A DNA stretch of 64,000 bases from an uncultured Candidatus Saccharibacteria bacterium (lineage in GTDB: Bacteria; Patescibacteriota; Andersenbacteria; UBA10190). Location: positions 99,140 to 163,139 of the forward strand of contig CAYJKV010000001.1 in assembly GCA_964371255.1 (NCBI GenBank), written 5' to 3'. Within the stretch, counting starts at the first letter, position 1, and the number at the start of each line of letters is the position of its first letter. Under the pieces are notes generated by a model. That model was not told the DNA's origin, made no database searches, and worked only from the letters and a program-made list of their open reading frames with translations. The position numbers and the translations under genes are program-made. Of this stretch, positions 9,732 through 36,155 are shown piece after piece.

Positions 9732-11465
9732 ATGGTGGATGATAATAATAAAAAGGTATTAAATGCACTAGTCGAGCAGGGAATCATCAAAGACGAGAAG
9801 CAAGTCAGTGATATTGAGCAACAATTAGCAGGGGGCGCTACGCTGGAACAGATCTTAGTAGAAACCGACGTAGTAGAAGCGGAAGCGCTGGCGCAAGTAA
9901 AGGCGCAAATACTAGGATTGCCGTATATCGATTTGAGAGAAAAACAGATTCCGAAGGCGGTTTTAGATATTATCCCCGAATCGACGGCGCGAGGACACAT
10001 GATTATTGCTTACGATCAAACGCCGGAACTGCTGCGGGTGGCGATGGCCGATCCGAGCGATCGCCAAATAGTAGAATTTGTCCGGAAAAAAGTGGACCAA
10101 CCGGTCGAAGTGGCGGTAGCGTCAGCGGGCGCAGTGCGGGACACATTGTCCAATTACCAAGAAAGCTTGGAAGCTGAATTGGATGACGTGGTGAGCAAGG
10201 AGTTGAAGCTGGTCAACGAGATAGCAGATGATTTGGGTAAAGCAGCCGAAGACTTACCAATTGTCCGAATTACCCAGGCCATTTTAAAACATGCCATTAT
10301 GGAAGGCGCTTCTGATATTCACATTGAGCCGACGGAAAAAGACGTGGTCATCCGCTATCGAGTAGATGGTATTTTGCATGATATGTTAGTGTTGCCCAAA
10401 GCTGTCTTGGCAGGTTTGATAGCGCGGATAAAAGTATTGAGCAATTTGAAAATAGACGAACATCGTTTACCACAGGACGGACGTTTTATGATTGAATCTG
10501 ACGAATACAAAGTTGCTTTTCGTGTTTCTACCTTACCCGTGTTTGACGGGGAAAAAGTCGTGATGCGCTTGCTCGACGAATCAGGTAAAAAGTTAGGATT
10601 GGATGACATCGGTATCCGGAAAGAAGCGCTGGAGTTAATGAGGCGGATAATCCAGCGCCCACATGGAATGGTGCTGGTCACTGGCCCGACAGGTTCCGGA
10701 AAAACAACGACGCTATATGCGGCGATGAAAGAAGTGAATACGGCTGATGTTAACATCAGTACGATTGAAGATCCAATCGAATATCGGATGCCCCGAATTA
10801 ACCAAACGCAAGTTAAACCGCAAATCGGTCTGACCTTTGCTAACGGCTTAAGAGCGCTAGTCAGGCAAGATCCTGATGTGATTATGGTGGGAGAAATTCG
10901 CGATGAGGAGACGGCCTCGCTGGCAATCAATGCTGCTTTGACAGGACATTTGGTATTAACGACTTTACACACTAACAGTGCAGCCGGAGCCATACCGCGG
11001 ATGCGAGATATGAAAGTGGAAGCCTTCTTGATTGCCTCTACTGTGAACTTGATTATGGCCCAGCGATTAGTGAGGAGGCTGTGTCCGAAATGCCGGAAAG
11101 AACGTAAGTTAGACACGGCTGTGATTGCTGACATAAAAAAAGAATTCAATTCCGAAGAAATATTTAAGACCTTGGTAAAGGAGAAAGTGGTAAAAGCTGG
11201 AGAAGATTGGAAGGACGTGGTGATTTATGAAGCAGTGGGATGCAAGATGTGTCACGATGGTTACAAAGGCCGGATCGGCATATATGAAACCATGGAGATA
11301 ACACCTGAGCTGCAGAAGATGATAGTGCCGACTGTGACAGCTGAGCAATTGGAACAAGCAGCGAGAGAACAAAATGGGATGGTCAGTATGCTGGAAGACG
11401 GTATTATCAAAACTGTCGAAGGAATGACGACATTGGAAGAGGTATTGAGGGTGGCAAGAGAATAA
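9732..11465 (+). CDS. pilB: type IV pilus assembly ATPase PilB (GspE family)
   Basis: 577 aa. N-terminal GspII_E-like region, Walker A GPTGSGKTTT, Asp/His boxes, and a C-terminal tetracysteine CPKC...CKMC zinc motif. Confidence 0.9.
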   Translation: MVDDNNKKVLNALVEQGIIKDEKQVSDIEQQLAGGATLEQILVETDVVEAEALAQVKAQILGLPYIDLREKQIPKAVLDIIPESTARGHMIIAYDQTPELLRVAMADPSDRQIVEFVRKKVDQPVEVAVASAGAVRDTLSNYQESLEAELDDVVSKELKLVNEIADDLGKAAEDLPIVRITQAILKHAIMEGASDIHIEPTEKDVVIRYRVDGILHDMLVLPKAVLAGLIARIKVLSNLKIDEHRLPQDGRFMIESDEYKVAFRVSTLPVFDGEKVVMRLLDESGKKLGLDDIGIRKEALELMRRIIQRPHGMVLVTGPTGSGKTTTLYAAMKEVNTADVNISTIEDPIEYRMPRINQTQVKPQIGLTFANGLRALVRQDPDVIMVGEIRDEETASLAINAALTGHLVLTTLHTNSAAGAIPRMRDMKVEAFLIASTVNLIMAQRLVRRLCPKCRKERKLDTAVIADIKKEFNSEEIFKTLVKEKVVKAGEDWKDVVIYEAVGCKMCHDGYKGRIGIYETMEITPELQKMIVPTVTAEQLEQAAREQNGMVSMLEDGIIKTVEGMTTLEEVLRVARE

Positions 11466-11601: not shown

Positions 11602-12819
11602 ATGCCAATATACTCCTTCGAAGGGCGACGTGAAAAAACTGGCGAGGTAGTGCGAGGATTGCGGGAAGCACAGTCACATGCTTTATTAGGTCAAGATTTG
11701 TTGACGGAAGGAATCTTGCTGACGCGCTACACACAGAAGCTACAAAGATTGCCGGGAGCGACAATATATTCAATGATATTTAATCGGGTGCCGGTGATTG
11801 AGCGAGTTTTGTTTTCGCGTTATTTTTCGCTGATGTTACGGGCGGGGATGGATGTTAAACGATCGCTGCAGGCATTGCAACAACAGACACGTAGTAAACC
11901 CCTGAAGATGGCGCTGGAGAGCGTTTACCATGATATTGAACGAGGTCGGACTTTGGCGGAGAGTATGCAGGCGTTTCCGGCGGCTTTTCCTCCTTTGTTT
12001 ATCAGTTTTATCGAGGTGGGGGAAACAACCGGAAGGCTGCAGGAATCGTTGGAAGTATTAGCGAGTCAATTGCAAAAAGAATATGAGTTGAAGAGGGCGG
12101 TTAAGGGAGGGTTAATGTATCCGGCCGTAATTATTCTGGCTTTGATTGCTGTTGGTATTGCCATGATGTTTTTCGTCGTGCCAAAACTGGTGGAGGTGTT
12201 TGAAGGTTTTAATGTGGAGTTGCCCTTAGCAACGCGGGTGCTGATATGGTTTAGTGACTTTTTTCAAAATTACTGGATCGGGATATTCATTGTCGCTTTT
12301 ATGCTGATGGGATGCGCCTGGGGTTTAATGCGAGTGAAATCAGTCCACGCGGCGGTTAATGAGGGATTATTATATCTGCCCATTTTCGGCGGAATTATTC
12401 AAAAGGTAAATCTGGGAAGATTTTCACGTAACCTTAGTTCTCTTTTACAAAGCGGAGTGTCTTTTATTCGGGCATTGGAGATATTAGGCCAGAATACGCC
12501 TCATCCAAGTTATGCTCATGTTTTTTCCGCGGCACGCGAGCACGTGAGGCAAGGTAAGGAACTGAGTAGTTTTTTAGCTGATTTTCAGCGCCTGTTTCCA
12601 CCGATAGTCATCAATGTGATCAAGGTGGGTGAGGAAACAGGTGCTTTAGACCAGGTGCTGGCGGAGACAGCTTTGTTTTATGAGAGTGAAGTAGACCAAA
12701 CCATGAAGAACTTAACATCTATTATGGAACCAATATTAATGGTGGGTGTGGGGTTAGCGGTCGGTGCTTTGGCAGTATCGGTAATTTCACCTATTTATGA
12801 CCTGGTCAACGTTGTCTGA
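11602..12819 (+). CDS. pilC: type IV pilus inner-membrane platform protein PilC (GspF family)
   Basis: 405 aa. It has two GspF repeats and three TM segments, and sits directly after pilB. Confidence 0.85.
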   Translation: MPIYSFEGRREKTGEVVRGLREAQSHALLGQDLLTEGILLTRYTQKLQRLPGATIYSMIFNRVPVIERVLFSRYFSLMLRAGMDVKRSLQALQQQTRSKPLKMALESVYHDIERGRTLAESMQAFPAAFPPLFISFIEVGETTGRLQESLEVLASQLQKEYELKRAVKGGLMYPAVIILALIAVGIAMMFFVVPKLVEVFEGFNVELPLATRVLIWFSDFFQNYWIGIFIVAFMLMGCAWGLMRVKSVHAAVNEGLLYLPIFGGIIQKVNLGRFSRNLSSLLQSGVSFIRALEILGQNTPHPSYAHVFSAAREHVRQGKELSSFLADFQRLFPPIVINVIKVGEETGALDQVLAETALFYESEVDQTMKNLTSIMEPILMVGVGLAVGALAVSVISPIYDLVNVV

Positions 12820-12922
12820 TAGGTATAAAGATCTAAGAAACTCTCTTAGGGCGACCAGACAACAATTAGTTGTTAACGAAGCAGAGGTTAGTGCCTGGTA
12901 TACAGGAAGGGAGTCAAGAGCG

Positions 12923-14410
12923 TTGGGGTCAGCTGGTTTTACAATAATCGAAGTATTGATTGCTGTTTTTGTAGTAAGTACTGCGATCGTTGGGGTGTTT
13001 GGTTTGTTTGCGTTGGGACTACGCCTGGCAGGGGAAAGCGAGAATAGACTGATGGCGATTGCCCTGGCGAACGAAAAAATGGAATTGATCCGAAACTTGC
13101 CATATGTCGATGTTGGAACGCAGGGCGGGATACCGGACGGTGCGATATTGCAGGAAGAGTCGGTGGTGAGAAATAGCGTCAGTTTTCTGGTAGAAACTGA
13201 TATTAGATACGTGGATGACCCTTATGATGGTTTGGTGGGCGAAGGAGGGGCGGGGGGATGTGTGGCCATTGCCCATCGACCCCCGGGCAATCCGAACAAT
13301 TGCAGTGACATGTGCGTGCCGGCCTCGGCGGTAAACGCGCATTTATTGCATGGGGATGCGATGGGCAACTGCGACGGTACGTATAATGGACCGGATGTAC
13401 TGAATACCGACTATAAGCAAGTCAGAGTTGAGGTCTCCTGGCCAAGCCCCAATGAGCCACGACCGATTCTATTAATTACAAAAGTAGCACCGAGTGGGGT
13501 GGAGGGCGGAGAACTTTTTGGCACGTTGGACTTTCTAGCTTTGGACAGCCAAGGTTTGGCAGTGCCATCGGCTGATGTCACTTTAGTTAACAATGAGGTT
13601 GAGCCGGTCGTGAACTATGCTACCCAGACTAATAACGAGGGACGGGTAGTGGTGCCTGGGCTACCAGAGAGCGCGCAAAATTACCAATTGACGGTTAGTA
13701 AGCCAAATTATACTACTGAGCAGACTTATGATATTGGGCCGGATTTTGTACCGGATACTGATCATACGCATTTATCCATGTTGATTGGCGAGGTGACACA
13801 AAAAGCCTTTGTGATTGATTTAGCCAGCCGGCTGGAGATTACTTTTGAAGAAGGTGGCGATAGTACGGAGAATTACTGTGAAGGCGTGCCGCCGTTGGAG
13901 TTAGGTAATGTTGAGCATATACTGCGAGGAACTAAGACTATTGGCATTGATGAGGCGGGGGACCCGGTTTATGTGTATGACTATGCCGGTGTGTCGGATG
14001 TTAACGGACAAAGCGTGCATGAGAACCTCGTATGGGATTCATACGAGTTTAATTTAGCGTCGGGATCAGCTTGTGATATTAAAGAGACGAGCTTATTGCG
14101 GCCAGTGACCATAAATCCCGGAGAGGACTTAGCCATGACGGTCAAATTGGTAAAACATACGCCTGTTTCTTTACAAGTAACAGTTGTTGGTACGGCCGGA
14201 CTGCCAGTGGATAACGCCACGGTGCATTTATTGGGCGACGGAGTGGACGAAACCTTAGGCACGGGACCATGGGGCCAAGTTTTAATGGCTGATTTGCCGG
14301 CCAATGGCCAGTTTGATTTAACGGTTTCAGCACCCGGTTATGTGGAATGGCAGGATAGTGTCGACGTGGAAGACACCACGATGGTCAGGGTAGTGATGAG
14401 CAGTCCTTAA
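12923..14410 (+). CDS. pilin-like protein with prepilin N-terminus and large C-terminal domain
   Basis: Class III signal ...LGSAG|FTIIEVLIAVFVV, with E at +5. The track ORF begins at 12797, overlapping pilC, with a 42-aa leader. A TTG at 12923 preceded by an AGGAAGGGAG RBS would give a short leader. About 500 aa. Confidence 0.65.
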   Translation: MGSAGFTIIEVLIAVFVVSTAIVGVFGLFALGLRLAGESENRLMAIALANEKMELIRNLPYVDVGTQGGIPDGAILQEESVVRNSVSFLVETDIRYVDDPYDGLVGEGGAGGCVAIAHRPPGNPNNCSDMCVPASAVNAHLLHGDAMGNCDGTYNGPDVLNTDYKQVRVEVSWPSPNEPRPILLITKVAPSGVEGGELFGTLDFLALDSQGLAVPSADVTLVNNEVEPVVNYATQTNNEGRVVVPGLPESAQNYQLTVSKPNYTTEQTYDIGPDFVPDTDHTHLSMLIGEVTQKAFVIDLASRLEITFEEGGDSTENYCEGVPPLELGNVEHILRGTKTIGIDEAGDPVYVYDYAGVSDVNGQSVHENLVWDSYEFNLASGSACDIKETSLLRPVTINPGEDLAMTVKLVKHTPVSLQVTVVGTAGLPVDNATVHLLGDGVDETLGTGPWGQVLMADLPANGQFDLTVSAPGYVEWQDSVDVEDTTMVRVVMSSP

Positions 14411-14437: not shown

Positions 14438-15085
14438 ATGGAACAAACTAGCAGGCAAAAAAAAAGAAACAAGACGTTGGGCATGACGTTGCTGGAAATT
14501 TTAGTGGTAGTGTCGATCAGTGTCATTGTCTTAATGGCATTGCTGCGTTTTTTAGTAGCCGGCTATCCGTTATCAAAAACTACCGTGTTACAGCAGCGTT
14601 CAACGGAAACAGCCCGGATTCACTTAAAAAGACTGGTGAAGAGTTTGCGCGAAGCACGGCATTCTGATACCGGTGCTTATCCACTGGTCGCAACAGAACC
14701 ACAGAAAATTATTTATTATGCCAATGTTGATGCTGACCCAGCGACGGAACGTGTTCGTCTGGAGTTATCCGGCCATGATCTTATCCGAGGCGTGACTAAG
14801 CCAACGGGTACGCCATTGACATATAATCTGGAGAATGAAGTAGCGGTTGTAATTATCGGCACGGTGGTGAATGAAGCGGAGAAAATTTTCAGCTATTACA
14901 CCGGTGATTACCCGGTTAACACTGAAGAACTGACACCGACCGACCTGACCGAAGTCAAGTATATTGCCATTAATTTGTTAATAGATTCTGACCAGGCGAT
15001 TGATCCTCCGCCTATTCGGGTGAGATCACAAGTCCAATTGCGTAACTTGAAGACCAATTTAGGTCAGGTAGTGGAAGTGCCGTAG
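14438..15085 (+). CDS. pseudopilin / minor pilin (prepilin-type N-terminal domain)
   Basis: KTLG|MTLLEILVVVSI cleavage/methylation motif, with E at +5. 215 aa. Confidence 0.7.
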   Translation: MEQTSRQKKRNKTLGMTLLEILVVVSISVIVLMALLRFLVAGYPLSKTTVLQQRSTETARIHLKRLVKSLREARHSDTGAYPLVATEPQKIIYYANVDADPATERVRLELSGHDLIRGVTKPTGTPLTYNLENEVAVVIIGTVVNEAEKIFSYYTGDYPVNTEELTPTDLTEVKYIAINLLIDSDQAIDPPPIRVRSQVQLRNLKTNLGQVVEVP

Positions 15086-15163: not shown

Positions 15164-17491
15164 GTGATGAGGATAAATAACAGACAAGCCGGGCAGTCGC
15201 TAGTCGAGGTGTTGATAGCGGCATTTATTCTAGGGATTCTGGCTATCGCTTTAGCGGGCGTGTCGACCTTGGGAACAAAAACAGCGGTTGTGAGTGAGGA
15301 ACGAACGGTGGCACAAGCCATAGCTAATAAAAGGGAGGAGTTGATTAAACTAACACCTTATGTGGACGTAGGATACACGGGAGGCAGTGTACCGGATGGT
15401 ATATTTCCGGCGAGTGAAGTGATTGATACTAACAACCAGGTGTATGAAATGAGGATGGATATAACACTAGTGGATGATCCAGAGAACGGTTGTGTGGATG
15501 CCGGTGGCACTTGTGACGGCAGCACATTAGATGAGGAGACGGCTGATTATAAGAGAGTGGTGATAAGTGTCGTGTACCCGTCAGCCAACGATGCGGCGGA
15601 GGAGGTTAAAGTTGTGACATACAGTGTGCCAGGCCAAGCGGAAGCGTTGTTGAATATGGTGGAGTGTGATCCAACTGATATTACCGGGTCATGTGGAGCG
15701 GGACAGATATGTTGCAACGAGAGGTGTCTAGCCAGGTGTGATCCGGGATCTTGCCCGGAAGGATATAGCTGTGCCGAGAATGGCTGCGGGTGCGTTGAGG
15801 CTGATTGCCCTTGGTGCGATCTGGCGACTTGTTTTGATGACTTTGAATGTGTCGCATCGAACCAGCAATGCTTGGCAGGTAATTGCGTAGCGGAGTGTGC
15901 CAGCGACGGTGATTGCGGGGGGGCGACGTGTTTATATGGATGGTGTTTGGAGTCATGTATAAATAACAGTGAATGCAACGGTGATCAGATTTGCCAAGAC
16001 GGGTCGTGTCAGATGCCTGGTTGCGTCACTAACTATGACTGTAGAGTTGGTTACAGCTGTACGGATTTTCAGTGTCACCCGACAACTTGCGTGGATGATG
16101 CCTATTGTCCCGCTAATTTTGAGTGTGTAGAGAACACCTGCATGCCCGCTGTTTGTGCGGATGGAACTTGTCCTGGTAGTTGGGAGTGTGTTTACGGCAA
16201 ATGCCAACCACCAAATTGTTCAGCGGTGCAATCTTGTAATAGCCTAAATTGTCTAGGAGGCGAATGCCAACCACCGGTATGTGAAAATCACGGTCAATGC
16301 GGCGGGCTGGCAGTTTGTTTAGGGGGGACTTGTACTAGCCCACCGGCTTGCGGGGCAGGTTGCCCAGCTTCATTATCTTGTGTGGGCGGCCTGTGTTACA
16401 AAGCGAATATGACAGTGGCGCCACTGCTTTTAACGGAAGAATGCCCAGCACCAATGGCTTTCCCGTGCCTACCGGCCATAGGTGAGGTGACGGTCACGTG
16501 GTTGCCTGTCGAAGGTGAAATATATTGTGAACCGTCAGTAACCACTGGTGCCTGCACAACTGATCCGAACCCAACGGTTGAATGGAGTGATACTGACGGG
16601 GATGGCAAAACCAATTGCGGAGCGTCGGGATTGCTGAATGCTTGTGAGCCTATTAATCCCATCGAATGCGGGTCTAGTTGTCCTGGTTGTCCAAGCTGCG
16701 CGATAGACAATTTATGTATTGAAGGTCGTTGCATGCCAAAACAACCTTGCCCGGTTGGATACGCCAATCATCCCACTGTGGCAGGAGCTTGTGCAGAAGA
16801 AGTGTCTGTCTCACCACCCGTGACCTGTCCGCCAGGAATATGCGCTGGTTCATATTGTAGCGCGAGCGGGGAGTGTGTGACGGCTGGCTGCGTGACAGAC
16901 GAACAGTGCGGGGCACATGGCAAGTATTTATGTCGTAATAATATATGTATACCATCACTGGCCAGGGATTGTGAGTATTGTACGCCACCGGAAAGAATCT
17001 CTTATTGCCATACACTAGACTGTCCGACTTGCGGTGGTGGCCCAGGATCGGCTTGCACAGATCCGTTAGGCGCTGCGAGTACTGTAGTGTGGTCACAGGA
17101 CCGAACAACAGGTTGTAGTCATTTGATTTGTGCTTACGCCCCAAGTCTTTGCGGCGACGGAATAACGCAGCCAGGGGAGGAATGTGATGGGGGGGATGAT
17201 GTAAATTGTCCCGGGCTATGCAGCGCTTGCCAGTGTCCGGCAGCGGTGTGCGGTAACGGACAGTTGGAGATAGGTGAGACGTGTGACCCTCCTGAGGGTA
17301 CTTCATGTTCACCGGCGGAATGTGGGACGGGCGGTGCGCCACCGTGCTTATGTCAAACTCAAGCACCGCCGCCGTTATGCGGGAACGGATTAATAGATAC
17401 GCTGTCCGGGGAGGGGTGTGATTGGTCAGTGTCGCCAGACTCATGTGTGGGAGGATATTGCAGCGATGTTTGTGTATGTGAGTACCCGTGA
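15164..17491 (+). CDS. giant pilin-like protein with cysteine-rich tandem repeats
   Basis: Prepilin motif NRQAG|QSLVEVLIAAF. The remaining ~700 aa carry more than 100 Cys in tandem ~20-aa units with C-x5-C-x4-C-x4-C spacing. Three C-terminal CG(D/N)G..E.CD units resemble the myxobacterial cysteine-rich repeat. Confidence 0.7.
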   Translation: MMRINNRQAGQSLVEVLIAAFILGILAIALAGVSTLGTKTAVVSEERTVAQAIANKREELIKLTPYVDVGYTGGSVPDGIFPASEVIDTNNQVYEMRMDITLVDDPENGCVDAGGTCDGSTLDEETADYKRVVISVVYPSANDAAEEVKVVTYSVPGQAEALLNMVECDPTDITGSCGAGQICCNERCLARCDPGSCPEGYSCAENGCGCVEADCPWCDLATCFDDFECVASNQQCLAGNCVAECASDGDCGGATCLYGWCLESCINNSECNGDQICQDGSCQMPGCVTNYDCRVGYSCTDFQCHPTTCVDDAYCPANFECVENTCMPAVCADGTCPGSWECVYGKCQPPNCSAVQSCNSLNCLGGECQPPVCENHGQCGGLAVCLGGTCTSPPACGAGCPASLSCVGGLCYKANMTVAPLLLTEECPAPMAFPCLPAIGEVTVTWLPVEGEIYCEPSVTTGACTTDPNPTVEWSDTDGDGKTNCGASGLLNACEPINPIECGSSCPGCPSCAIDNLCIEGRCMPKQPCPVGYANHPTVAGACAEEVSVSPPVTCPPGICAGSYCSASGECVTAGCVTDEQCGAHGKYLCRNNICIPSLARDCEYCTPPERISYCHTLDCPTCGGGPGSACTDPLGAASTVVWSQDRTTGCSHLICAYAPSLCGDGITQPGEECDGGDDVNCPGLCSACQCPAAVCGNGQLEIGETCDPPEGTSCSPAECGTGGAPPCLCQTQAPPPLCGNGLIDTLSGEGCDWSVSPDSCVGGYCSDVCVCEYP

Positions 17492-17512: not shown

Positions 17513-17971
17513 ATGAATGATATTGGATATAATCAGGTGGGCGGTGTGATGCTATTAGTTTTAATGTTAATGATAGTTTTTATTGTGATCGCGAGCGCTA
17601 CTTTGCGTTACGTTATTCGACAATCGCACGAGACTATTGATCAAGAGCAGGAAGAGCAAGCATTTAACGCGGCGGATAGCGGTGTGGCTTACGTTTATTG
17701 GTTGTTAGATCCGGCTGGAGGGCAAAAAGTTCCGGCCGATATCGCAGAAACGACCCGGGCTGTATATGACGACTCGGATGCAGAAATTGGTACTTTTACA
17801 ATTAATGACATAATCACTAACACTGACGAAATCGAGTTTACTTCTACCGGGCGAGACACAGAACTGACCGAGCGCTGCCAAGTAATAAAGGTACGTCTAC
17901 GCCAACCGGTAGATAATGAGAGGTATATCTTAACAGATTGGGATCATTTAGTGGGTTACCCTTGTTCATAA
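17513..17971 (+). CDS. PilX-like minor pilin / pilus assembly protein
   Basis: N-terminal hydrophobic helix QVGGVMLLVLMLMIVF without the conserved E+5, followed by an AADSGVAY segment as in PilX-type proteins. 152 aa. Confidence 0.45.
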   Translation: MNDIGYNQVGGVMLLVLMLMIVFIVIASATLRYVIRQSHETIDQEQEEQAFNAADSGVAYVYWLLDPAGGQKVPADIAETTRAVYDDSDAEIGTFTINDIITNTDEIEFTSTGRDTELTERCQVIKVRLRQPVDNERYILTDWDHLVGYPCS

Positions 17972-17996: not shown

Positions 17997-19640
17997 ATGA
18001 GAAAAATGAACGGATGGAAAGTCTGGCAGGTATTAAAGTGGCGAGCGCAAGGCCGGGAAGAAGGGTTATCATTAGTGGAGTTATTAGTATTTATTGGCGT
18101 AGGATCTGTCCTGATAGTAACGCTAGGGTTAATCGTGTCGGGAACTTCACGCATCTCACGTCAGCAGATAGAGCAAGGCGCGATTACGGAAAAGGCTAGG
18201 GTGCAATTGGAAAGGATGAGTGATGAAATCCGGAATGCCCAGTATATAGACTGCAACTTGGACGCAGACACGGCGGACGCGGATGAACATTGGCTGTATG
18301 GCGCTAATGATTTTGAAATTATTGTCTTAAGCAATGTGGATGATGATGTGGAAGCCGAACGGGTGAGATATTTTGTACAAGTCGGCACAACAGGTGAGAC
18401 CAAGAAGTTAAAGCGCGGGGTGACGCAGCCCGGTGCATCATTGTGTGATTTTTCAACCAATCCAGAAAACGTTACTACGGTACTGACTGGTTTGGAAAAT
18501 GCGACACCTGATCCGGCAGTCCCTGTTTTCCAGTATTTTACCAGTGGTAATGAGGCGGCGCGTTTGACCACGCCGGTGATTCGTTTGTCTAGTGTGTTGC
18601 GGGTGAGACTGGAGCTGAAGATTGATGAGGACATTAACATTGAGCCGACGATAGTTGATATCGTGACTGATGTGGTACCCCGCGGAGTGGAGGATCCAGG
18701 AATATGTGTAGCGGCGGGGCTGAATTTGCAGCGCTATTCTGATGGGGATCCTTTCGCAGACCAGGCGTATAATTCGTGTCAATCATATTGTTTGGGCAGC
18801 GCCAGTTTGCCGGCCGGGCAATGTTGTCCTTGGTCAGTAGCGTTTTATTGGGATTCGAGCAGCCATATGGTCTGGTCAACATGTGAATGCGCGGATACGT
18901 ATTTGCCTCCGGATATGATTCCTGACAGTGTTAGTCCCGGCAGTTACACTAATTTTGTGCGCTCGTGTTTAAACGGAACGCAGTGCGCAGGACAGAGAGG
19001 TGAAGCCGTATGCGAGCCGAATTGTTTAGACGCGCCTGGACAGTGTGTATGTGTTTGTCCGGGTGGTTTGCCGTCTACGACAGCATGTGATGATGGGGTG
19101 GATAATGATGGTGATGGGACGGCGGACTGTGCGACGTGTGATGGGGTGCTAGGACTGTTTTATGATCCGGGTTGTTCTGGCAGCGCCGACAGTTCAGAGT
19201 GGGGCACGGCTGAGTGCGATGATGGCCAAGCAAATGATTGTGACGGACTCCAAGACTATAGGGTAAATGGAACAGGGGATCCGGACTGTACTGGTCCCAC
19301 AGATAATGATGAAGGTGATTGCTTGGGATGTACCCCGGCACAAGTAATAGGAGTATCACAGTGCAGTGATAGTATAGACAATGATTGTGCGGGAGATGGG
19401 GTGGGTTACGCAGTTATTCCGTCTGATCCACAGTGTCAAAATGCGGCAGATAATAACGAATGGTCGGTGTTAAAACAATGCCACGACGGCTTTGATAACG
19501 ATGGGGATGGAGGCATTGACAGTAATGGTTTCCCGCCGGATTCGGACTGTCCTGGTCCCAGCGAGGATAACGAATGGGGAGAGCCAAGTATTGCCCCAAC
19601 GCCGACGGCAGTAATTACAGAATCACCACCCGTCTTCTAG
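17997..19640 (+). CDS. pilin-like protein with C-terminal Cys/Asp-rich Ca-binding-type repeats
   Basis: Prepilin motif GREEG|LSLVELLVFIGV. The C-terminal 200 aa contain four or more CxDGxDNDxDG...D(P/S)DC units, reminiscent of thrombospondin type-3 / DxDxDG Ca-binding repeats. Confidence 0.65.
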   Translation: MRKMNGWKVWQVLKWRAQGREEGLSLVELLVFIGVGSVLIVTLGLIVSGTSRISRQQIEQGAITEKARVQLERMSDEIRNAQYIDCNLDADTADADEHWLYGANDFEIIVLSNVDDDVEAERVRYFVQVGTTGETKKLKRGVTQPGASLCDFSTNPENVTTVLTGLENATPDPAVPVFQYFTSGNEAARLTTPVIRLSSVLRVRLELKIDEDINIEPTIVDIVTDVVPRGVEDPGICVAAGLNLQRYSDGDPFADQAYNSCQSYCLGSASLPAGQCCPWSVAFYWDSSSHMVWSTCECADTYLPPDMIPDSVSPGSYTNFVRSCLNGTQCAGQRGEAVCEPNCLDAPGQCVCVCPGGLPSTTACDDGVDNDGDGTADCATCDGVLGLFYDPGCSGSADSSEWGTAECDDGQANDCDGLQDYRVNGTGDPDCTGPTDNDEGDCLGCTPAQVIGVSQCSDSIDNDCAGDGVGYAVIPSDPQCQNAADNNEWSVLKQCHDGFDNDGDGGIDSNGFPPDSDCPGPSEDNEWGEPSIAPTPTAVITESPPVF

Positions 19641-19702: not shown

Positions 19703-21235
19703 ATGAAGGCATGGGCTAAATGTTATAAATGGCGAACCTGGTCAAGTAAAACCTGGTTGATAATAGTGTTATTGACAGCCAGTGTGGCGACCCATTTCTT
19801 GTGGTTTGGTTATCCGGGGCAAGTGGTGTTTGACGAAGTGCACTTTGGTAAGTTTGTGACAGCGTATTGCTGCACACACCAGCGTTTTTTTGATATTCAT
19901 CCGCCCCACGCTAAATTATTAATTGCCGGTACGGCTTACTTGTTTGGTTATCGAGGGGGAGTTAATTTTGACCATATCGGACAGGATTATGGCGATGTAG
20001 CCGCTTGGCCGCTGCGTGTCTTTCCGGCCTTGACTGGTGTGTTATTGCCGTTAGTCATTTATGCCCTGCTGCGACAATTAAAAGCTAAGCCAGCGGCAGC
20101 ATTCTGGGGCGGGATGCTGGTGGTGTTGGATAATGCCCTCACTGTACAGACGAGGATTATTGCTTTGGACGGTTTATTGCTAGTGGCCACATTTGGTGCC
20201 CTGGCAGCGTATTTAGCGGCCAGAAACCAAAAGCAGCCAAGCAGTGGGCTAATTTCGTCGAGTGTTGGAGTGAACACCTGGTGGAATTCATTGACGGGCA
20301 GGACACAGATGAAGAGAGAAGGATGGATGTTTTTGCTAGCAGGCTCATTAGTCGGTTTGGCCGTCGGGACAAAATTTACAGGGCTAACGGCTGGTGGGTT
20401 GATCGTAATATTACTAGTTGTTTGGCTGATCAGAATAAGAACCTACACTGAGATCAGAAGATGGATAACAGCCACCGCTTTGATCGTATTGGGAGCAGTA
20501 GTCGTGTATGGCTTGGGGTGGATGATACATTTTATGGTTTTAACCGAACCGGGTGATGGGGATTTGTGGCGGAAACCACAGTGGGAACAACCAATCATGG
20601 CTAGTTTTTGGCGCGAAACAAAAATGATCCATAAAATAATGTATGATGCCAACAGTGGATTGAAAGCGGAGCACCATGACGCGAGCCGCTGGTGGTCCTG
20701 GCCGCTGGTTCGAACACCAGTTTTTTATTGGCAATTTAGTGAAGGGGGAGAGGCAAACAGATCCGGATCAATTTATTTTTTACCTAATCCGTTTTTATGG
20801 TGGGGGACGTCTGCCTTGTTTGTGGTGGTGATATTAGCGATAGTGATTACGGGAGTGAATAATATTACAAGGTGGGCGAAGCGAAGGAAAGAACTTGGCC
20901 AAATGCGACAGCAATGGCAGCAGTCATTCTTGAAGCAGGCGTGGTTGCCGTTAATGGGATACGCGGCATCGTATATACCATTGATGAAAGTAACCAGGGT
21001 CTTATTTCTTTATCATTACCTGACACCCTGGCTGTTTTCCCTGATCGTGACTGTTTTGTGGCTCGAGAGAGTTGGCTGGATTACACCAAAGGAGGCAATA
21101 GATCAACCAAAGAGGTATTGGTTGGTGCTGGGCATAATACTATGCGCATTTATTTTTTTCAGCCCCTTGACGTACGGTTTTTTACTGGGAGAAGGGGTAC
21201 GGGAAGGACTGTTTTGGTTTAAAACGTGGATGTAA
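19703..21235 (+). CDS. GT39-family protein O-mannosyltransferase-like membrane glycosyltransferase
   Basis: 510 aa and polytopic. The loop-1 motif VVFDEVHFGKF is the hallmark DE-containing motif of PMT/GT39 enzymes. Confidence 0.6.
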   Translation: MKAWAKCYKWRTWSSKTWLIIVLLTASVATHFLWFGYPGQVVFDEVHFGKFVTAYCCTHQRFFDIHPPHAKLLIAGTAYLFGYRGGVNFDHIGQDYGDVAAWPLRVFPALTGVLLPLVIYALLRQLKAKPAAAFWGGMLVVLDNALTVQTRIIALDGLLLVATFGALAAYLAARNQKQPSSGLISSSVGVNTWWNSLTGRTQMKREGWMFLLAGSLVGLAVGTKFTGLTAGGLIVILLVVWLIRIRTYTEIRRWITATALIVLGAVVVYGLGWMIHFMVLTEPGDGDLWRKPQWEQPIMASFWRETKMIHKIMYDANSGLKAEHHDASRWWSWPLVRTPVFYWQFSEGGEANRSGSIYFLPNPFLWWGTSALFVVVILAIVITGVNNITRWAKRRKELGQMRQQWQQSFLKQAWLPLMGYAASYIPLMKVTRVLFLYHYLTPWLFSLIVTVLWLERVGWITPKEAIDQPKRYWLVLGIILCAFIFFSPLTYGFLLGEGVREGLFWFKTWM

Positions 21236-23070: not shown

Positions 23071-24099
23071 ATGATAGGGATTGATATATCAGATCGTTCA
23101 ATTAAGATGGTACAGAAATCGAATGTGGGTGGAGACCCCGTGCAGTCTTTTTGTTGGCATGTGATCGAGGAAGGAGTAATTGAGCGGGGCATAATTATGG
23201 AACCCAAAAAACTAAGTCAGGCCTTAGTGCAGACGTTTAAACGGTGTCATTTAGCGGTGGATACAGATGATGCGGTGGTGGCATCGATTCCGGAAACACA
23301 GTCCTTCCTGCGGGTGATTGAGATGCCTGATATGACAGACGAAGAGACGGATGAAGGAGTACGATGGGAAGTAGCCCAACATATCCCATTTGGATTGGAA
23401 AATGTTTACATCGACTGGCAACCGATACCGTGTGGTCATCAGTCGGCTAAAGGAATTCGTGAAGTATTGGTTGGAGCGGCCCAGAAAAAAGTGGTTGATC
23501 CACTGTTGGTCGTATTGAAGGAGTTGGATTTAGATGTGGCGGCCTTGGAACTGGAAAGCCAGGCCATTGTGCGGGCGTTAATTTCACCGGAGCTGCAGAC
23601 CAAGCAAGGTATTCTTGTGGTAGATTTAGGCGGCAGTGCAACAAACGTTATTATCCATGACCATGGCGCTATGAGGTTTACGGCTAGTTTGCAGCACGGA
23701 GTCAGAAGGATAGCGGAAGCATTGCCAGCTAAGGACAAGGAGGGTCTGATAGTGCCCACCAATGAGGATTTTGAGCCAGAATTAGCTCGTCGTGTAGCGG
23801 AGGCCATGCGACCGGCACAAGAAGAGTTAGTGATGGAAATTAAGGGGATTGTTGAATTTTATAATGGTATTGATGCAAAACATGAGGTGACCGAAATCCT
23901 GCTGACAGGCGGTGGTTCCAATTATCCAGGACTAGACCGAGTCGTTGCTAAGTATTTTGATGATGTTCATGTGCAGCGGGGGAATCCGTGGGCCAATATT
24001 TTACCTCACAGCCAAATGAGCAAGGTGCCAATGTCACTGAAGGAGTCGGTGCATTTTTCCACCGCGATCGGTTTAGCGTTAAGAAAAATTGAAGCATGA
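23071..24099 (+). CDS. pilM: type IV pilus assembly protein PilM (copy 1)
   Basis: MIGIDISDRSIKMVQ N-terminus, actin-like ATPase fold motifs, and a DLGGSATNV phosphate loop. 342 aa. Confidence 0.8.
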   Translation: MIGIDISDRSIKMVQKSNVGGDPVQSFCWHVIEEGVIERGIIMEPKKLSQALVQTFKRCHLAVDTDDAVVASIPETQSFLRVIEMPDMTDEETDEGVRWEVAQHIPFGLENVYIDWQPIPCGHQSAKGIREVLVGAAQKKVVDPLLVVLKELDLDVAALELESQAIVRALISPELQTKQGILVVDLGGSATNVIIHDHGAMRFTASLQHGVRRIAEALPAKDKEGLIVPTNEDFEPELARRVAEAMRPAQEELVMEIKGIVEFYNGIDAKHEVTEILLTGGGSNYPGLDRVVAKYFDDVHVQRGNPWANILPHSQMSKVPMSLKESVHFSTAIGLALRKIEA

Positions 24100-24629
24100 A
24101 GGACGATATAAATCTCTTACCTAAGCCATTGGTAATAGGTCGAGAAAGACGGGCGTATTTGTTTGGTTTTGGCCGCTTACTGCAGCGGATTGCTTTGCTA
24201 TTAGTTGCTATAATTGTCGGGGAAGTAGTCGTGTATGGCGCTCACTATTATATAGATCAGACTATGGATCAGAGTGGGAAGGCCGATGAGCAAAGCCTGA
24301 GTACGACAGAACAAGCACAAAATGTGAATATGTTGCTGTCTTTGGTAGATAACACGCGCAAGCAATTTGTCAGCTGGTCTTTATTCAGTGAGGAAGTGCT
24401 TAATAGTGCGCCAAGAGAAATTACTATTAGCAAGTTGGAAGTGAAGGAGAAGCTAGGAGCATTAGAGGTGGTGGGTTATTCCAGTCGAAGAGCGTCGGTA
24501 TTGGAATACAAAAATATTTTAGCAGGGTTGAGTTGGGTGAAACGGGTGGATGCACCGCTACAAAACTATGCGATAGGGCCAGACGCCGGTTTTTCTTTCA
24601 GCCTAATTGTTGATAAGGGAGTACAATGA
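24096..24629 (+). CDS. pilN: PilN-like protein (copy 1)
   Basis: INLLP motif near the N-terminus and a single TM. Translationally coupled to pilM. Confidence 0.65.
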   Translation: MKDDINLLPKPLVIGRERRAYLFGFGRLLQRIALLLVAIIVGEVVVYGAHYYIDQTMDQSGKADEQSLSTTEQAQNVNMLLSLVDNTRKQFVSWSLFSEEVLNSAPREITISKLEVKEKLGALEVVGYSSRRASVLEYKNILAGLSWVKRVDAPLQNYAIGPDAGFSFSLIVDKGVQ

Positions 24630-25270
24630 AATCTTTACGCTTGAAAAAATTAATAATTACGAGGTTAATAGGATTGATTGTTGTCGTGTCGTTGGTAGGT
24701 TTAGTAATTGTCGCTGGACGCTTCGTGCAAGGGATAAGAATTCAACTAGCGGAAAGACAGTTAGTCTTGGAGGAGAGTTTAAATAATGCAGTGCATCGGG
24801 CAGCGGTAGCAGATAAACTGGTCCAATACGAACCAGAGATAAAGAGGGTGACTGATACTGTTCCGTGGCGTGATGGGATAGGGCAAGTGATTGAGATGGT
24901 GGAGTTGGAAGCAAAAAAGTGGGGAGTGGCTGTACTGGTACCGAAAATTAACGAGGAACCAAAATTTGATGAGAGTGGTGTCCCTGTTCCACAAACCGGG
25001 CCGACAAGGTTGATCCGCTTAAAAGTAGAGGCAACGGGTAACCCCTTGGCACTAATGAATTTTTTGCATAGTTTGGAAAATTTGCCCTATTTAATCAATC
25101 CCCTGTCATTTGTTTTAGATAATGAAGATGAGAGTGTAAACACAGTTGGTCCAGCAGCTTTGGCACCGGCTTTGTCGGGTTCCAAGGAAGAAAGAGAACA
25201 AAAAACAGTGCAGCAGTCTTCCTTAAAAGCGGATTTTCTTCTCACCGTGCGGGTAGAAGAACTTAAATAA
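24626..25270 (+). CDS. pilO: PilO-like protein (copy 1)
   Basis: Single N-terminal TM plus coiled coil. Position after pilN, with a 4-nt overlap. Confidence 0.5.
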   Translation: MKSLRLKKLIITRLIGLIVVVSLVGLVIVAGRFVQGIRIQLAERQLVLEESLNNAVHRAAVADKLVQYEPEIKRVTDTVPWRDGIGQVIEMVELEAKKWGVAVLVPKINEEPKFDESGVPVPQTGPTRLIRLKVEATGNPLALMNFLHSLENLPYLINPLSFVLDNEDESVNTVGPAALAPALSGSKEEREQKTVQQSSLKADFLLTVRVEELK

Positions 25271-25274
25271 TATT

Positions 25275-25625
25275 ATGAAAATTGATTGGCAAAGCATCAG
25301 TAATTTAGCGGACAAGAAAAGCTGGTATCAGATCAGCAGTCGCTTGCGGGTATTAGTGCATCAGGCACCGCGCATCTTGTTCATAAGACATAGTCATATT
25401 ATTGACATTATCGCGGTGGGTATGGGGCTGCTGTTGGCCTCCTATTTAGTCTTTCTATTGGTATTTAAACCACCAACCGACATTAACATGAATAATGCAC
25501 AAAAGTGGGATTTGCAGATAGACACCCTTAAAGATTTGAGTAATTGGGTAATTGAGCGTCAAAAGGAAAAAGAAAGAGTACTGGAATTTAACCGCAGCGA
25601 AATATTTAAAATGCCGATTAATTAA
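25275..25625 (+). CDS. hypothetical membrane protein (pilus module accessory?)
   Basis: 116 aa with one TM (IIAVGMGLLLASYLVFLLVF). It lies between the two pilMNO modules. Confidence 0.35.
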   Translation: MKIDWQSISNLADKKSWYQISSRLRVLVHQAPRILFIRHSHIIDIIAVGMGLLLASYLVFLLVFKPPTDINMNNAQKWDLQIDTLKDLSNWVIERQKEKERVLEFNRSEIFKMPIN

Positions 25626-25631
25626 AGACGT

Positions 25632-26684
25632 ATGATCGGGATAGATTTATCAGATCGTTCAATAAAAATTGTTGAAACCAGAGGGGACGAGAACCCTGTG
25701 CTACGGACTTTGTGTTGGTCACCTTTGGCACCAAATCTGCTAAGACGAGGTGTGGTGCAGGATGTGGCATTGGTCTCAGAGGCCTTGAAAGTAGCGATGA
25801 CGAAATGTTCACCCATTCCCGTCGAAGGCGGTGACGTAGTGGCTTCGATACCGGAGGTGCAATCTTTTGTCCGTGTCTTGGAAGTGCCAGCGATGTCCGA
25901 GAGGGAAATGGATGAAGCGGTACAATGGGCAGTGCGGCGACACATTCCGTTTGATTTGGACCGGGTTTATATTGATTGGGAGGAACTGGACCTGGCGTCT
26001 GATATGCCGCAGCACAAACAAGTGTTAGTCGGGGCGGCCCAACGCGATGTGGTGGATCCGCTGCTGACAGTTTTGGATAGTTTGGGTTTTAACGTGGTGG
26101 CTTTAGAACTTGAGGCACAAGCCGTGATGCGGTGTCTATTGCCACGAGATATTACCGAGACAAGGGATATTCGAGGTGTTCTAGTGGTTGATTTGGGGGC
26201 CACGTCGACGAATGTTATTTTATTTGATCAGGGAGCAATGCGTTTCACAGCTAGTGTGCAAGTGGGTGGCGATGATTTGACACAGCAATTAGCGCACGCG
26301 CTAAATTTAAAGCCGGCCCAGGCGATGGAAATCAAAGCAAAAGTTGGCGCTGGCTTCATTAAGGATGAACCGGCAGCAGCGCAAGCTTTACAGAGCGCAA
26401 CCTTGAATTTAGCCCGCATGGTAGAAAGAGCCGTACAGGAGATGACAGTACAGTTGCCGCGTGAACAGAGAATGAGAACAATATTGCTGACAGGCGGGAA
26501 TGCAAATTTGGTTGGTATTCGGGAGCTGTTTGGCAGTGTTTTCACTGGTATTCCTGTGCAATATGGCAATCCTTGGACGAATTTGCAACAAGAAAAGAGG
26601 CGAATTGGTCTTAATCTGACGGTCGGAGATGCCATGCATTTTACGACTGCGATCGGGTTGGCACTACGCGAGGTTGATTATTAA
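25632..26684 (+). CDS. pilM: type IV pilus assembly protein PilM (copy 2)
   Basis: MIGIDLSDRSIKIVE. Paralogous to copy 1, sharing VVASIPE.QSF.RV.E.P and DLG..STNVI. 350 aa. Confidence 0.8.
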   Translation: MIGIDLSDRSIKIVETRGDENPVLRTLCWSPLAPNLLRRGVVQDVALVSEALKVAMTKCSPIPVEGGDVVASIPEVQSFVRVLEVPAMSEREMDEAVQWAVRRHIPFDLDRVYIDWEELDLASDMPQHKQVLVGAAQRDVVDPLLTVLDSLGFNVVALELEAQAVMRCLLPRDITETRDIRGVLVVDLGATSTNVILFDQGAMRFTASVQVGGDDLTQQLAHALNLKPAQAMEIKAKVGAGFIKDEPAAAQALQSATLNLARMVERAVQEMTVQLPREQRMRTILLTGGNANLVGIRELFGSVFTGIPVQYGNPWTNLQQEKRRIGLNLTVGDAMHFTTAIGLALREVDY

Positions 26685-26699
26685 TATAACCAGCAAAAC

Positions 26700-27278
26700 A
26701 TGGCTCGTCATTTAAACTTGCTACCTGTCGAACGTCGAGAGCATTTAAGACGCGGTGCTTTGTTAGTGTCAAGTGTGCGGATTGTGAAAACGTTGCTGAT
26801 GGGGCTGGGAGTGATGTCAGGTGGGGCAGTGCTCATTGGATTAAGTTTGTGGGGTTTGACTTTTACTTATGCAAGTTCCGGAAGTTCAGAGCTAGAACAA
26901 CAAGTGGGGGCATACGTACAGTTAAAGGACATTATTGCTCGGCAAAATCAGGTGCTGAACCAAGTTAATCGTCTAGGTTCAGAGAGGTTAGTGTGGTCGG
27001 ATTATCTCGGGGGATTTCTATCGGAAGTTCCGCCCGGCACGACAATTAATATTTTAACAGCTGATACAACTAGCGGGATGGTGACTTTTTCTGGTGAAGC
27101 GCTCACAAGAAATTCCTTGGTGGTCTTTGAAGAAAGGCTAAGCCAATTAGAATGGGTGGCGTCTGTGGCAGCGCCGCGACAGAATTTATTACAAAGAAGT
27201 AATCCTGAGTATAGTTTCGAGTTGAAGCTCAAACCGATGGGTGGGGTAAGTTTTAATGATGATGCGATGGCTTTATGA
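26700..27278 (+). CDS. pilN: PilN-like protein (copy 2)
   Basis: LNLLP motif and a single TM. Confidence 0.6.
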   Translation: MARHLNLLPVERREHLRRGALLVSSVRIVKTLLMGLGVMSGGAVLIGLSLWGLTFTYASSGSSELEQQVGAYVQLKDIIARQNQVLNQVNRLGSERLVWSDYLGGFLSEVPPGTTINILTADTTSGMVTFSGEALTRNSLVVFEERLSQLEWVASVAAPRQNLLQRSNPEYSFELKLKPMGGVSFNDDAMAL

Positions 27279-27937
27279 GTAATAGTTTCACTAACCAAGG
27301 GACAAGCGCCGCTAAGGTATTAGTGGTCTTGAGTGTGGCGGTATTGCTACTAGCCGGCTTACAGCCATTTTTGTGGAGCTGGGTTAAAAATCGGTCAATA
27401 GCTTTACATGAATTGAGGATTCAAGCGGAACAAATAGAAGAAGTGAAAAAAAGAACAAAAGAAATGGAAGATAATTATAACAACCAAAAGATATTTGTGG
27501 CTCAACTTGATTCTGTCGTACCGCAGAGTCGCAACGCACTGCAGGTGATTGAGCGGTTGGAAACGGCAACTCAAGGATTAAATGTTAAGTTAGAGGTGTC
27601 GCGGATTGATGAAGGGGCGGAGCTGAAACTGGGGGAAGGAGCCGGGCCGGAAGAATCTGGTTTGGTCGAACCGGTGCCGGATCTTGCCAGAGATAATAGC
27701 AAACCGGGTAACTCGGTATTTCCATTATTTATTACGGTTACAGTAACCGGTAAGCCAGAAGCGTTAGTAGAATATATTGACGTGGTTGAACATGTCCAAG
27801 AATTATCTTATATACAAAAATTTACGATATCACCGGCAGTATCTGCACAAAACCTGACAGTTGAAGACAGCGAATTTCAGCTGTTAATGACGGTGGTATT
27901 TTATTTACAAGGACAACCTGATGGATCAATCGAATGA
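27275..27937 (+). CDS. pilO: PilO-like protein (copy 2)
   Basis: N-terminal TM plus coiled coil. 4-nt overlap with pilN2. Confidence 0.5.
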   Translation: MSNSFTNQGTSAAKVLVVLSVAVLLLAGLQPFLWSWVKNRSIALHELRIQAEQIEEVKKRTKEMEDNYNNQKIFVAQLDSVVPQSRNALQVIERLETATQGLNVKLEVSRIDEGAELKLGEGAGPEESGLVEPVPDLARDNSKPGNSVFPLFITVTVTGKPEALVEYIDVVEHVQELSYIQKFTISPAVSAQNLTVEDSEFQLLMTVVFYLQGQPDGSIE

Positions 27938-36051: not shown

Positions 36052-36155
36052 TGACAATCTTGCAGCTCTCGCTCTTTGTAGTGAGAGCTTTTTTTGCTTA
36101 ATTTAGTAACACAAACAAACGAAATAACTCCGTCCGCAAAGTGTTCCAACCGTTT

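Follow-up and report, generated by a model that had tools for sequence, protein, structure and literature searches.

The gene analyzed here occupies positions 15164-17491 (+ strand) of a 64,000-nucleotide stretch of DNA, hereafter the window, from contig CAYJKV010000001.1 (assembly GCA_964371255.1) of an uncultured bacterium assigned to the Andersenbacteria lineage of the Candidate Phyla Radiation (CPR). Our analysis indicates that its product is probably a modular minor type IV pilin, acting as a tip-located adhesin with a disulfide-locked stalk. Several parts of this reading are directly supported: the prepilin signal, the I-class pilin fold (as seen in a structural model), the setting in a pilus operon, an architecture kept among relatives and the pattern of cysteine conservation. 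A preliminary description of this DNA, made from the letters of the sequence, had placed the open reading frame (ORF) at exactly these positions and strand. Its central observation, a pilin joined to a very cysteine-rich extension, holds true, and the fusion can now be placed within a CPR type IV pilus operon.

Type IV prepilins are recognized by a short basic leader that ends in Gly and is followed by about 20 hydrophobic residues with Glu at position +5. The N-terminus of the target, MMRINNRQAG/QSLVEVLIAAFILGILAIALAG (the slash marks the expected cut), has all of these traits. The Pfam family PF07963 (N_methyl) matches residues 6-30 with 27.6 bits, or 30.6 bits if the first 159 residues are scanned alone, above the Pfam gathering score of 21.2 bits. 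Glu+5 (E15) is invariant among 25 aligned relatives, which bears out the class-III prepilin N-terminus with Glu at +5 that had been called from the sequence, and G10 is nearly invariant among 20-25 relatives. Cleavage by a prepilin peptidase is therefore predicted after G10. The residue at +1 is Gln in the target, not Phe or Met, and relatives carry F, V, L, Q or M at this position. Translation from an alternative start, an ATG at 15167, would yield 774 amino acids (aa); this is the start used in the 99%-identical homologue P0001 and likely the true one. The mature protein has a mass of ~78 kDa and an isoelectric point (pI) of ~4.05, with 97 Asp and Glu residues against 24 Lys and Arg residues, and aa 661-775 are devoid of any Lys or Arg.

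A frameshift or misassembly that joined a small pilin gene to a separate cysteine-rich gene had been named as a possible refutation of the fusion. The chance that this is the case is negligible. The same uninterrupted ORF architecture occurs in six proteins with 50-99% identity from independent ENA, JGI, Logan and GEM assemblies, and it recurs in NCBI assemblies too. The contig that carries one of these homologues measures up to 474 kb, and a 70%-identical homologue is found in the GTDB genome ‘MAG: Candidatus Andersenbacteria bacterium RIFCSPHIGHO2_02_FULL_46_16’, a metagenome-assembled genome (MAG) from the Rifle aquifer. The fusion is repeated in distant relatives, and Tandem Repeats Finder detected no DNA-level tandem repeat in the target that could have caused an assembly collapse. 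Recurrence in independent assemblies and the absence of such a repeat together exclude an artefact; since no tandem repeat remains in the DNA, the protein modules must have diverged long ago.

The N-terminal 155 residues form the pilin module. An AlphaFold2 (AF2) model of aa 1-420, built from a 25-sequence alignment, has a mean predicted local distance difference test score (pLDDT) of 79.5 and displays the pilin lollipop fold, with a 51-residue alpha1 helix (residues 13-63) packed on an antiparallel sheet of four strands (84-89, 92-103, 129-138 and 146-154). The predicted structure of the module is similar to that of GspI, and its best structural matches are type II secretion system (T2SS) pseudopilins and Thermus competence pilins. 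Among the curated sequence models, TIGR02523 (PilV) covers the N-terminal helix only and stays at 20.5 bits, below its cut-off of 52.2, and TIGR01707 (GspI) gave no match to the target in the NCBIfam scan. By its modeled fold, the pilin module is thus of the ‘I’ subunit type of the HIJK priming/tip complex, without being a certified family member by sequence models. Residues 9-143 are paralogous to the product of a neighboring 537-aa gene (12797-14410; 33% identity, E = 2e-19).

The genomic setting of the target is that of a pilus operon (Table 1). It is encoded alongside type IV filament machinery, co-oriented with genes for PilB, PilC and PilM/N-like proteins. The small pilin encoded directly upstream is kept at the same slot in four related loci (L001, L006, L007 and L008), and the 152-aa protein encoded downstream carries a conserved RQSHET..QEQEEQAF motif. 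Their assignment as J- and K-type partners rests on weak matches and on the presence of Glu5 in the 215-aa pilin and its lack in the 152-aa protein. The fifth pilin reaches 28.9 bits for NF033662, under the cut-off of 41. The gene order of the window is reproduced in L001, which harbors a 50%-identical homologue, and, allowing for an additional gene or a contig that is cut short, in L006, L007 and L008. Four distant pilin-cysteine fusions (P0042, P0008, P0150 and P0085) could be placed on contigs, and all four lie in pilus operons.

These loci also indicate how the C-terminal modules are used. In P0042, the pilin is followed by Dickkopf_N/DUF7107 repeats, by acidic D.D.DG repeats and by a C-type lectin domain (PF00059, E = 6e-9), a layout implying that the repeats can act as a stalk that presents a distal binding module. 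The counterpart of the fifth pilin in L001 (12966-15845; 959 aa) carries LVIVD repeats in place of the acidic disulfide repeats found in the window, and C-terminal modules have thus been swapped on a conserved pilin N-terminus. K-type N-termini are likewise fused to extensions of 679-909 aa in L005 (4119-6158) and L008 (12992-15721), with Laminin_G_3 included in L005. The preliminary description had proposed that an adhesin- or lectin-like module is carried on the pilus, and such a role at the tip remains the best inference in light of the GspI-class fold and of this same-slot relative ending in a C-type lectin.

The slot and the fold also bear on whether the protein enters a filament at all. 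Its extension (~68 kDa) is very large beside the ~15-kDa pilin module, CPR genomes encode many divergent pilin-like and large cysteine-rich surface proteins, and incorporation of the target into a filament is a prediction. Its pilin-like N-terminus might therefore serve as an anchor for a surface protein that is never polymerized, making it a cell-surface adhesin or envelope component instead of a pilus tip. We consider this unlikely, since the gene keeps its place among J-like and K-like minor pilins right after pilB-pilC across related loci, the fold is that of the I subunit that nucleates tip complexes, and the Glu+5 required in subunit-subunit packing is invariant. Furthermore, CPR bacteria have no secretin in an outer membrane through which bulky modules could not pass, and the display of bulky modular pilins on pili is already known.

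The machinery genes leave some room for a different filament. The assembly ATPase scores nearly equally as PilB and as GspE, and the platform protein scores best as GspF (Table 1). Together with the T2SS pseudopilins and Thermus competence pilins among the top structural matches, the proposal of DNA uptake for CPR pili and the label ‘pseudopilin PulG’ given to P0005 in one source, this could point to a filament for competence (Com-like) or secretion (T2SS-like) in which the protein is a minor pseudopilin, with an extension devoted to DNA capture or substrate handling. Such a role appears quite unlikely to us: the strongly acidic composition noted above is unfavorable to DNA binding, PilM/N/O genes follow in the operon and a secretin is not expected in CPR bacteria. 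In addition, same-slot relatives and neighbors carry lectin-type modules (C-type lectin, Laminin_G_3 and CarboxypepD_reg), and the T4P-2 (type IV pilus 2) pilin mutants of TM7x that have been tested kept wild-type competence.

The extension that this pilin would carry is exceptional in composition. Cysteine accounts for 98 of the 775 residues (12.6%), compared to 0.87% when all other genes in the window are pooled, a ~14-fold excess. The count is slightly lower than the more than 100 cysteines first described, and the cysteine-rich part is ~610 aa long (aa 168-775, with 96 of the 98 cysteines) instead of ~700 aa. Its strictly tandem part spans ~235 aa and comprises ~11 units of ~22 aa (aa 177-411). 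The originally described modules of ~20 aa with C-x5-C-x4-C-x4-C spacing are recovered in this part, with a more relaxed spacing of C-x4-5-C-x4-6-C-x3-5-C and a consensus of C-x2-[DN]-x-[DE]-C-x4-6-C-x2-G-x-C; they do not extend through aa 412-660, which are cysteine-rich yet not regularly repetitive, with lone module copies at aa 506-523 and 555-595. In the AF2 model of aa 1-420, each of the ~11 units is a short turn followed by a beta-hairpin.

The middle region is particular to the closest relatives of the target. No Pfam or NCBIfam family was found for aa 160-660 at E<=10, scanned whole and in three pieces, and a local hidden Markov model of aa 412-660 matches only P0001-P0006 among 160 collected proteins. 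None of the best 150 hits of the family profile search described below has its best stretch in this region. A word-indexed search with aa 416-660 missed even P0001-P0005, which are 55-99% identical there; it was uninformative and was replaced by the local hmmsearch. Negatives of this word-indexed search are untrustworthy for cysteine-rich queries. Within the close family, the middle region is the best-conserved part of the extension, with 35% of non-cysteine positions invariant versus 20-23% in the repeat regions. It contains the invariant motif WSDTDGDGxTNC, an acidic loop that is a possible Ca2+ site judging from its DxDxDG pattern, and the distant fusions P0042, P0061, P0126, P0127 and P0140 have similar D.D.DG motifs at the corresponding site. 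All five amino acid differences between the target and P0001 fall in aa 557-579 (S557L, A570T, G571D and E579Q among them), and this part of the middle region may be a local strain-variable patch.

Relatives were collected with a profile of seven close homologues, searched with HMMER against 1.84 billion cluster representatives, and the phyletic distribution given here is based solely on this search. At E<=1e-3 it returned 3268 hits, of which 494 also passed E<=1e-10, and the hits fall into three classes: proteins matching the pilin module with or without cysteine repeats, proteins matching aa ~220-415, and proteins matching aa ~650-775. A prepilin N-terminus is present in 40 of the 155 collected proteins, and 17 of these 40 are at least 400 aa long with at least 6% cysteine, such as P0085 with 118 Cys in 950 aa and P0150 with 120 Cys in 974 aa. 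The search for the same fusion, which the preliminary description had suggested for metagenomes, thus returned the pilin plus cysteine-repeat architecture in at least 17 distinct clusters among the best 150 cluster representatives. Few further relatives came from a second search, which was word-indexed and used an alignment of 20 sequences, and scans of genome collections and metagenomes gave the same Andersenbacteria contig alone among the matches listed.

Matches to aa ~220-415 are giant non-pilin proteins that carry the Pfam domains DUF7107 (PF23416) and Dickkopf_N (PF04706), one of which is named ‘dickkopf-related protein [Myxococcota]’ by NCBI. The family profile aligns aa 222-430 with the DUF7107 regions of P0009 and P0010 (E = 3e-57 and 6e-57), and relatives positive for DUF7107/Dickkopf_N include P0042 (27.9 bits against a threshold of 24.6), P0010 (277 bits), P0009 and P0012. 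The module register of the target is the same as in the DUF7107-positive P0010 (C-x2-D-x-D-C-x2-G-x2-C-x2-G-x-C). When double modules of the target family and of the DUF7107 type were compared by hhalign, a probability of 97.2% was obtained in a test that is partly circular, because a cysteine regular expression picked both sets. On these sequence comparisons, we assign the tandem modules to the DUF7107/Dickkopf_N repeat type.

At the other end of the extension, the three CG(D/N)G..E.CD units reported earlier are present at the C-terminus (Table 1). Matches to aa ~650-775 are multi-copy repeats in giant proteins, of which P0007, P0013 and P0017 score 31.7-186 bits for TIGR02232 (myxo_disulf_rpt), and the proposed likeness to the myxobacterial repeat is sustained through these relatives. 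A search of PDB sequences with the family profile found only the disintegrin bitistatin (2mop; E = 0.83, not significant); the start of the disintegrin domain resembles the C-terminal CG[DN]G units.

The cysteines are conserved in a manner that distinguishes them from the remainder of the protein. Across five full-length homologues with 50-70% identity, 92 of 98 are invariant, compared to 20-36% of other residues; in the tandem array, these values are 46 of 48 and 23%, respectively. Where a cysteine is not kept, either two are lost together (215 and 218; 506 and 509) or the position moves by 1-3 residues (565 to 566; 720 to 723). The invariance and the paired losses point to disulfides, and an enrichment of CPR genomes in MdbA-like oxidoreductases and VKOR has been reported (10.1101/335083). 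Given the even cysteine count, the extracytoplasmic location and the membership in disulfide-repeat families that the sequence indicates, ~49 disulfides are the most likely state.

A protein so rich in cysteine, from a lineage with a relative in an aquifer MAG and with a few CxxC-type clusters (CPGCPSC at 506-512, CEYC at 603-606 and CPTC at 620-623), might alternatively bind metal in a metallothionein-like, Fe-S or chalcophile-metal fashion and serve as a metal-sequestering or redox-active component of the pilus or surface. We judge this very unlikely. The prevailing spacing is C-x4-6-C, not CxxC, and only 6 of the 775 residues are His. DUF7107/Dickkopf_N and TIGR02232, to which the modules are homologous, are considered to be disulfide repeats, the cysteine count is even with losses paired or shifted, and the hairpin modules were modeled with good confidence without any metal.

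Taken together, we propose the following model for the pilin-borne adhesin. The prepilin would insert into the membrane through alpha1 and be cut after G10, and would then assemble with its J-like and K-like neighbors into a priming complex that ends up at the pilus tip. From there, the acidic extension of ~610 residues might project outward, beginning with a flexible linker. The ~11 four-cysteine hairpins of DUF7107/Dickkopf_N type could form a disulfide-locked, protease-resistant stalk, followed by the clade-specific cysteine-rich head of 250 aa with its DxDxDG loop (possibly Ca2+-binding) and by the three TIGR02232-like repeats. The distal parts would bind a ligand on the surface of a particle or of a host cell, with which the cell could then be brought into contact by pilus dynamics. 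The paralogous I-like pilin with CarboxypepD_reg modules, encoded two genes upstream, may give an alternative or additional tip specificity. Precedents for such a role exist: the modular minor pilins PilB and PilC of Streptococcus sanguinis are tip adhesins stabilized by the I-like PilA (PMC8179133, PMC9934059), and the Saccharibacteria minor pilin PilX2, with its large C-terminal domain, is required for host binding (PMC11623550).

Several observations weigh against this model. DUF7107 and Dickkopf_N give no hit for aa 160-420 of the target even at E<=10, and the myxobacterial likeness does not carry over to the target sequence itself, which reaches 16.6 bits for TIGR02232 (E = 0.005), under the curated cut-off of 20.8, and 14.2 bits for DUF4215 (E = 0.056), under the Pfam cut-off of 27. 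No ligand-binding domain was recognizable in the target by Pfam or NCBIfam scans. The full-length AF2 model, built from 7 sequences, has a mean pLDDT of 41.6, with values of 25-45 that make aa 412-775 unusable. Among the scanned ORFs of the window, there is no prepilin peptidase (Peptidase_A24/PilD), PilT or major pilin, and no disulfide oxidoreductase gene (DsbA/MdbA/VKOR) was found in the 64 kb; for processing, retraction and oxidative folding, the model consequently has to assume genes in other parts of the genome. Finally, the groundwater in which the organism lives is often anoxic, and extracellular disulfides are less obviously stable there.

What is new here is the module type, the extreme predicted disulfide load for a pilin, the I-class carrier and the recurrence in a conserved slot of Parcubacteria-type CPR bacteria, whereas the category of system is already known. 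The Pfam family DUF7107 is presumably newer than the published catalogue of that category. Modular pilins are an established and widespread class, with 264 catalogued architectures among 1219 proteins and many CPR examples (Raynaud et al. 2021, PMC8179133). The catalogue includes PF13620 pilins and C-type-lectin pilins, its list of 264 architectures has no Dickkopf_N, Myxococcus cysteine-repeat or DUF7107 entry, and its authors state that modules without database signatures are under-counted (PMC8179133). The target has the composition by which the class is defined, a pilin module with at least one C-terminal non-pilin module (PMC8179133), in the form of aa 1-155, a linker and ~610 aa. Moreover, large cysteine-rich extracellular proteins with weak similarity to the Myxococcus cysteine repeat and a proposed role in attachment have been described in the CPR lineage Peregrinibacteria (Anantharaman et al. 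2016, PMC4736985). The statement that no characterized family matches this architecture was therefore too strong, in view of the modular pilins, the DUF7107/Dickkopf_N repeat type and these CPR proteins.

Comparison with these systems delimits the likeness. With the modular minor pilins of S. sanguinis, PilB (pilin plus vWA) and PilC (pilin plus lectin; PMC8179133, PMC9934059), the target shares a class-III signal, a small pilin module, a linker and a bulky C-terminal module, as well as a gene among the minor pilins of a monoderm-type type IV pilus locus and a proposed tip and adhesive role. Unlike the catalogued modular pilins, its graft is ~610 aa with 96 cysteines, composed of DUF7107/Dickkopf_N-like repeats, TIGR02232-like repeats and a clade-specific region. 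Its carrier is I-class (GspI-like), whereas the I-like PilA of S. sanguinis is not modular, and the adhesin role of the target is a putative one. Known I subunits (GspI, XcpV, EpsI and PilV) are ~100-130 aa long without an extension; in contrast, the target operon has two I-like paralogues, both modular. The DUF7107/Dickkopf_N repeat proteins are mostly giant, secreted and non-pilin, while the target is a pilin that remains under the Pfam thresholds. With TIGR02232/DUF4215 repeats it shares the motif CG[DN]G-x-x-x-GE-x-CD, present three times, and homology is transitive via relatives; unlike TIGR02232 proteins, it lies below the cut-off and has three copies only.

A functional parallel can be drawn to the PilY1/PilC tip adhesins of diderm type IVa pili and to PilX1/PilX2 of Saccharibacteria, where a large adhesive part is shown at the tip by a minor-pilin complex, and where an acidic, possibly Ca2+-binding loop is a further point of resemblance. 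However, PilY1 is not a pilin, and the target is a pilin without a beta-propeller or jelly-roll (no PilY1-type beta-propeller was matched in it by Pfam or NCBIfam), so that the likeness is functional and not ancestral. The Peregrinibacteria proteins have ordinary signal peptides and are not described as pilins (PMC4736985), unlike the target, whose array is grafted onto a pilin in a pilus operon.

Host recognition by ultrasmall CPR/Patescibacteria episymbionts is largely unexplained. Type IV pili are leading candidates, and genetics is available for Saccharibacteria alone. The locus described here provides a concrete and conserved candidate for a tip adhesin in an uncultivated Parcubacteria branch. 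To the catalogue of modular pilins it would add a disulfide-rich stalk module and an I-class priming subunit able to carry cargo, and it would give the widespread DUF7107/Dickkopf_N-like and TIGR02232 repeats, whose function is unknown, a first functional context in pilus display. The model predicts processing after G10, ~49 disulfides, a location at the tip, and glycan or protein binding. A bolder idea, which we put forward as speculative and rather doubtful, is that in a large Parcubacteria-type CPR group the ‘I’ subunit itself became the host-recognition device, with a rigid stalk of ~49 disulfides and a fast-evolving, clade-specific head. Alternative I-subunits (cysteine-rich or CarboxypepD_reg) would then yield different tips, and module swaps on all five minor pilins, perhaps together with glycosylation by the protein O-mannosyltransferase-like (PMT-family) enzyme encoded in the operon, would set the host range.

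Table 1. Features of the target gene and its operon, with positions in the window, and gene orders of four related loci
Feature	Position	Strand	Basis or remark
Target gene, probable modular minor prepilin	15164..17491	+	775 aa from GTG
Class-III (prepilin) leader peptide MMRINNRQAG, aa 1-10	15164..15193	+	Pfam N_methyl match
Alpha1 helix of pilin module, aa 11-63, with hydrophobic alpha1N and Glu+5 (E15)	15194..15352	+	AF2 helix 13-63
Globular pilin head, aa 64-155, predicted 4-stranded antiparallel sheet, GspI/PilV-class fold	15353..15628	+	
Linker, aa 156-176, lower model confidence	15629..15691	+	pLDDT 59-64 in blocks 161-180
Tandem array, ~11 four-Cys modules (~22 aa each), aa 177-411, assigned to DUF7107/Dickkopf_N type	15692..16396	+	
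Clade-specific Cys-rich middle region, aa 412-660, 30 Cys	16397..17143	+	Candidate ligand-binding ‘head’
WSDTDGDGxTNC motif, aa 474-485, DxDxDG-type acidic loop	16583..16618	+	Invariant in close-homologue alignment A1
C-terminal region, aa 661-775, three CG[DN]G..[ED].CD units	17144..17488	+	TIGR02232/DUF4215-like
CG[DN]G..[ED].CD unit, aa 663-675	17150-17188	+	
CG[DN]G..[ED].CD unit, aa 696-708	17249-17287	+	
CG[DN]G..[ED].CD unit, aa 739-753	17378-17422	+	
PilB/GspE assembly ATPase	9732-11465	+	553.7 bits PilB vs 537.5 bits GspE
PilC/GspF platform protein	11602-12819	+	Best score GspF
GspI/PilV-like modular minor pilin, 537 aa, CarboxypepD_reg/Ig-like modules	12797-14410	+	Two CarboxypepD_reg matches
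Small minor pilin, 215 aa, G/MTLLE with Glu+5, candidate J-type partner	14438-15085	+	Weak matches
Pilin-like protein, 152 aa, hydrophobic N-terminus without Glu+5, candidate K-type capping subunit	17513-17971	+	Weak ComGG/GspK matches
Fifth prepilin-like gene, a further modular minor pilin of 547 aa with 30 Cys and acidic double-disulfide repeats	17997-19640	+	
PMT-family glycosyltransferase, last gene of minor-pilin operon	19703-21235	+	Same position in L001 and L005
Two PilM(-N-O)-like alignment-machinery sets	23071..27937	+	Two PilM genes and a PilN-like gene
Related locus L005, gene order			PilC, P0085, two Laminin_G_3 proteins, PMT
Related locus L006, gene order			CarboxypepD_reg pilin, ~210 aa, P0042, ~150 aa, large protein
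Related locus L007, gene order			PilC, CarboxypepD_reg pilin, 215 aa, 383 aa, P0008, 159 aa, N_methyl protein
Related locus L008, gene order			NCBI assembly; PilB, PilC, CarboxypepD_reg pilin, 202 aa, P0150, 909-aa protein with K-type N-terminus

Some further features of the operon deserve mention. Two modular I-type subunits, the target and the product of 12797-14410, are encoded within one operon. The ORF of the latter overlaps the end of pilC and has a leader of 45 aa ahead of the Gly, a length suggesting that its real start lies further downstream. A PMT-family gene also ends the minor-pilin operon in L001 (15941-17476) and L005 (8104-9450), and Ser/Thr/Pro-rich linkers or tails are found in the related cysteine-rich pilins P0008, P0085 and P0150; the combination suggests that the pilins are O-glycosylated, possibly by the PMT enzyme. 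A conserved 462-aa ORF without a Pfam match (21500-22888) lies between the PMT gene and the first PilM gene, and L001 has the same layout. The two PilM-led sets, at 23071-25270 and 25632-27937 (+), each consist of PilM and two small genes and resemble a duplicated alignment subcomplex.

The remainder of the window is taken up by housekeeping genes, including those for thymidylate synthase, dihydrofolate reductase (DHFR), serine hydroxymethyltransferase (SHMT), IF3, SmpB and the transfer-messenger RNA (tmRNA), ArgRS and IleRS. The tmRNA gene, at 34649-35042 (+; Rfam RF00023, 120 bits), is located directly 3' of the SmpB gene (33981-34427); ARAGORN disagrees, since it detected neither a tRNA nor a tmRNA anywhere in the window. 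Pfam gave no match at E<=0.001 for five ORFs of 208-456 aa (35284-36051, 36322-36948 on the - strand, 38703-39644 on the - strand, 39921-41216 and 42803-44173), and stretches of ~1.5 kb at 41216-42803 and 45710-47253 are free of listed ORFs with 120 aa or more. Almost every gene is on the + strand, and the GC skew lies between +0.11 and +0.27 in all 2-kb bins except 36001-38000, which is unusually uniform over 64 kb.

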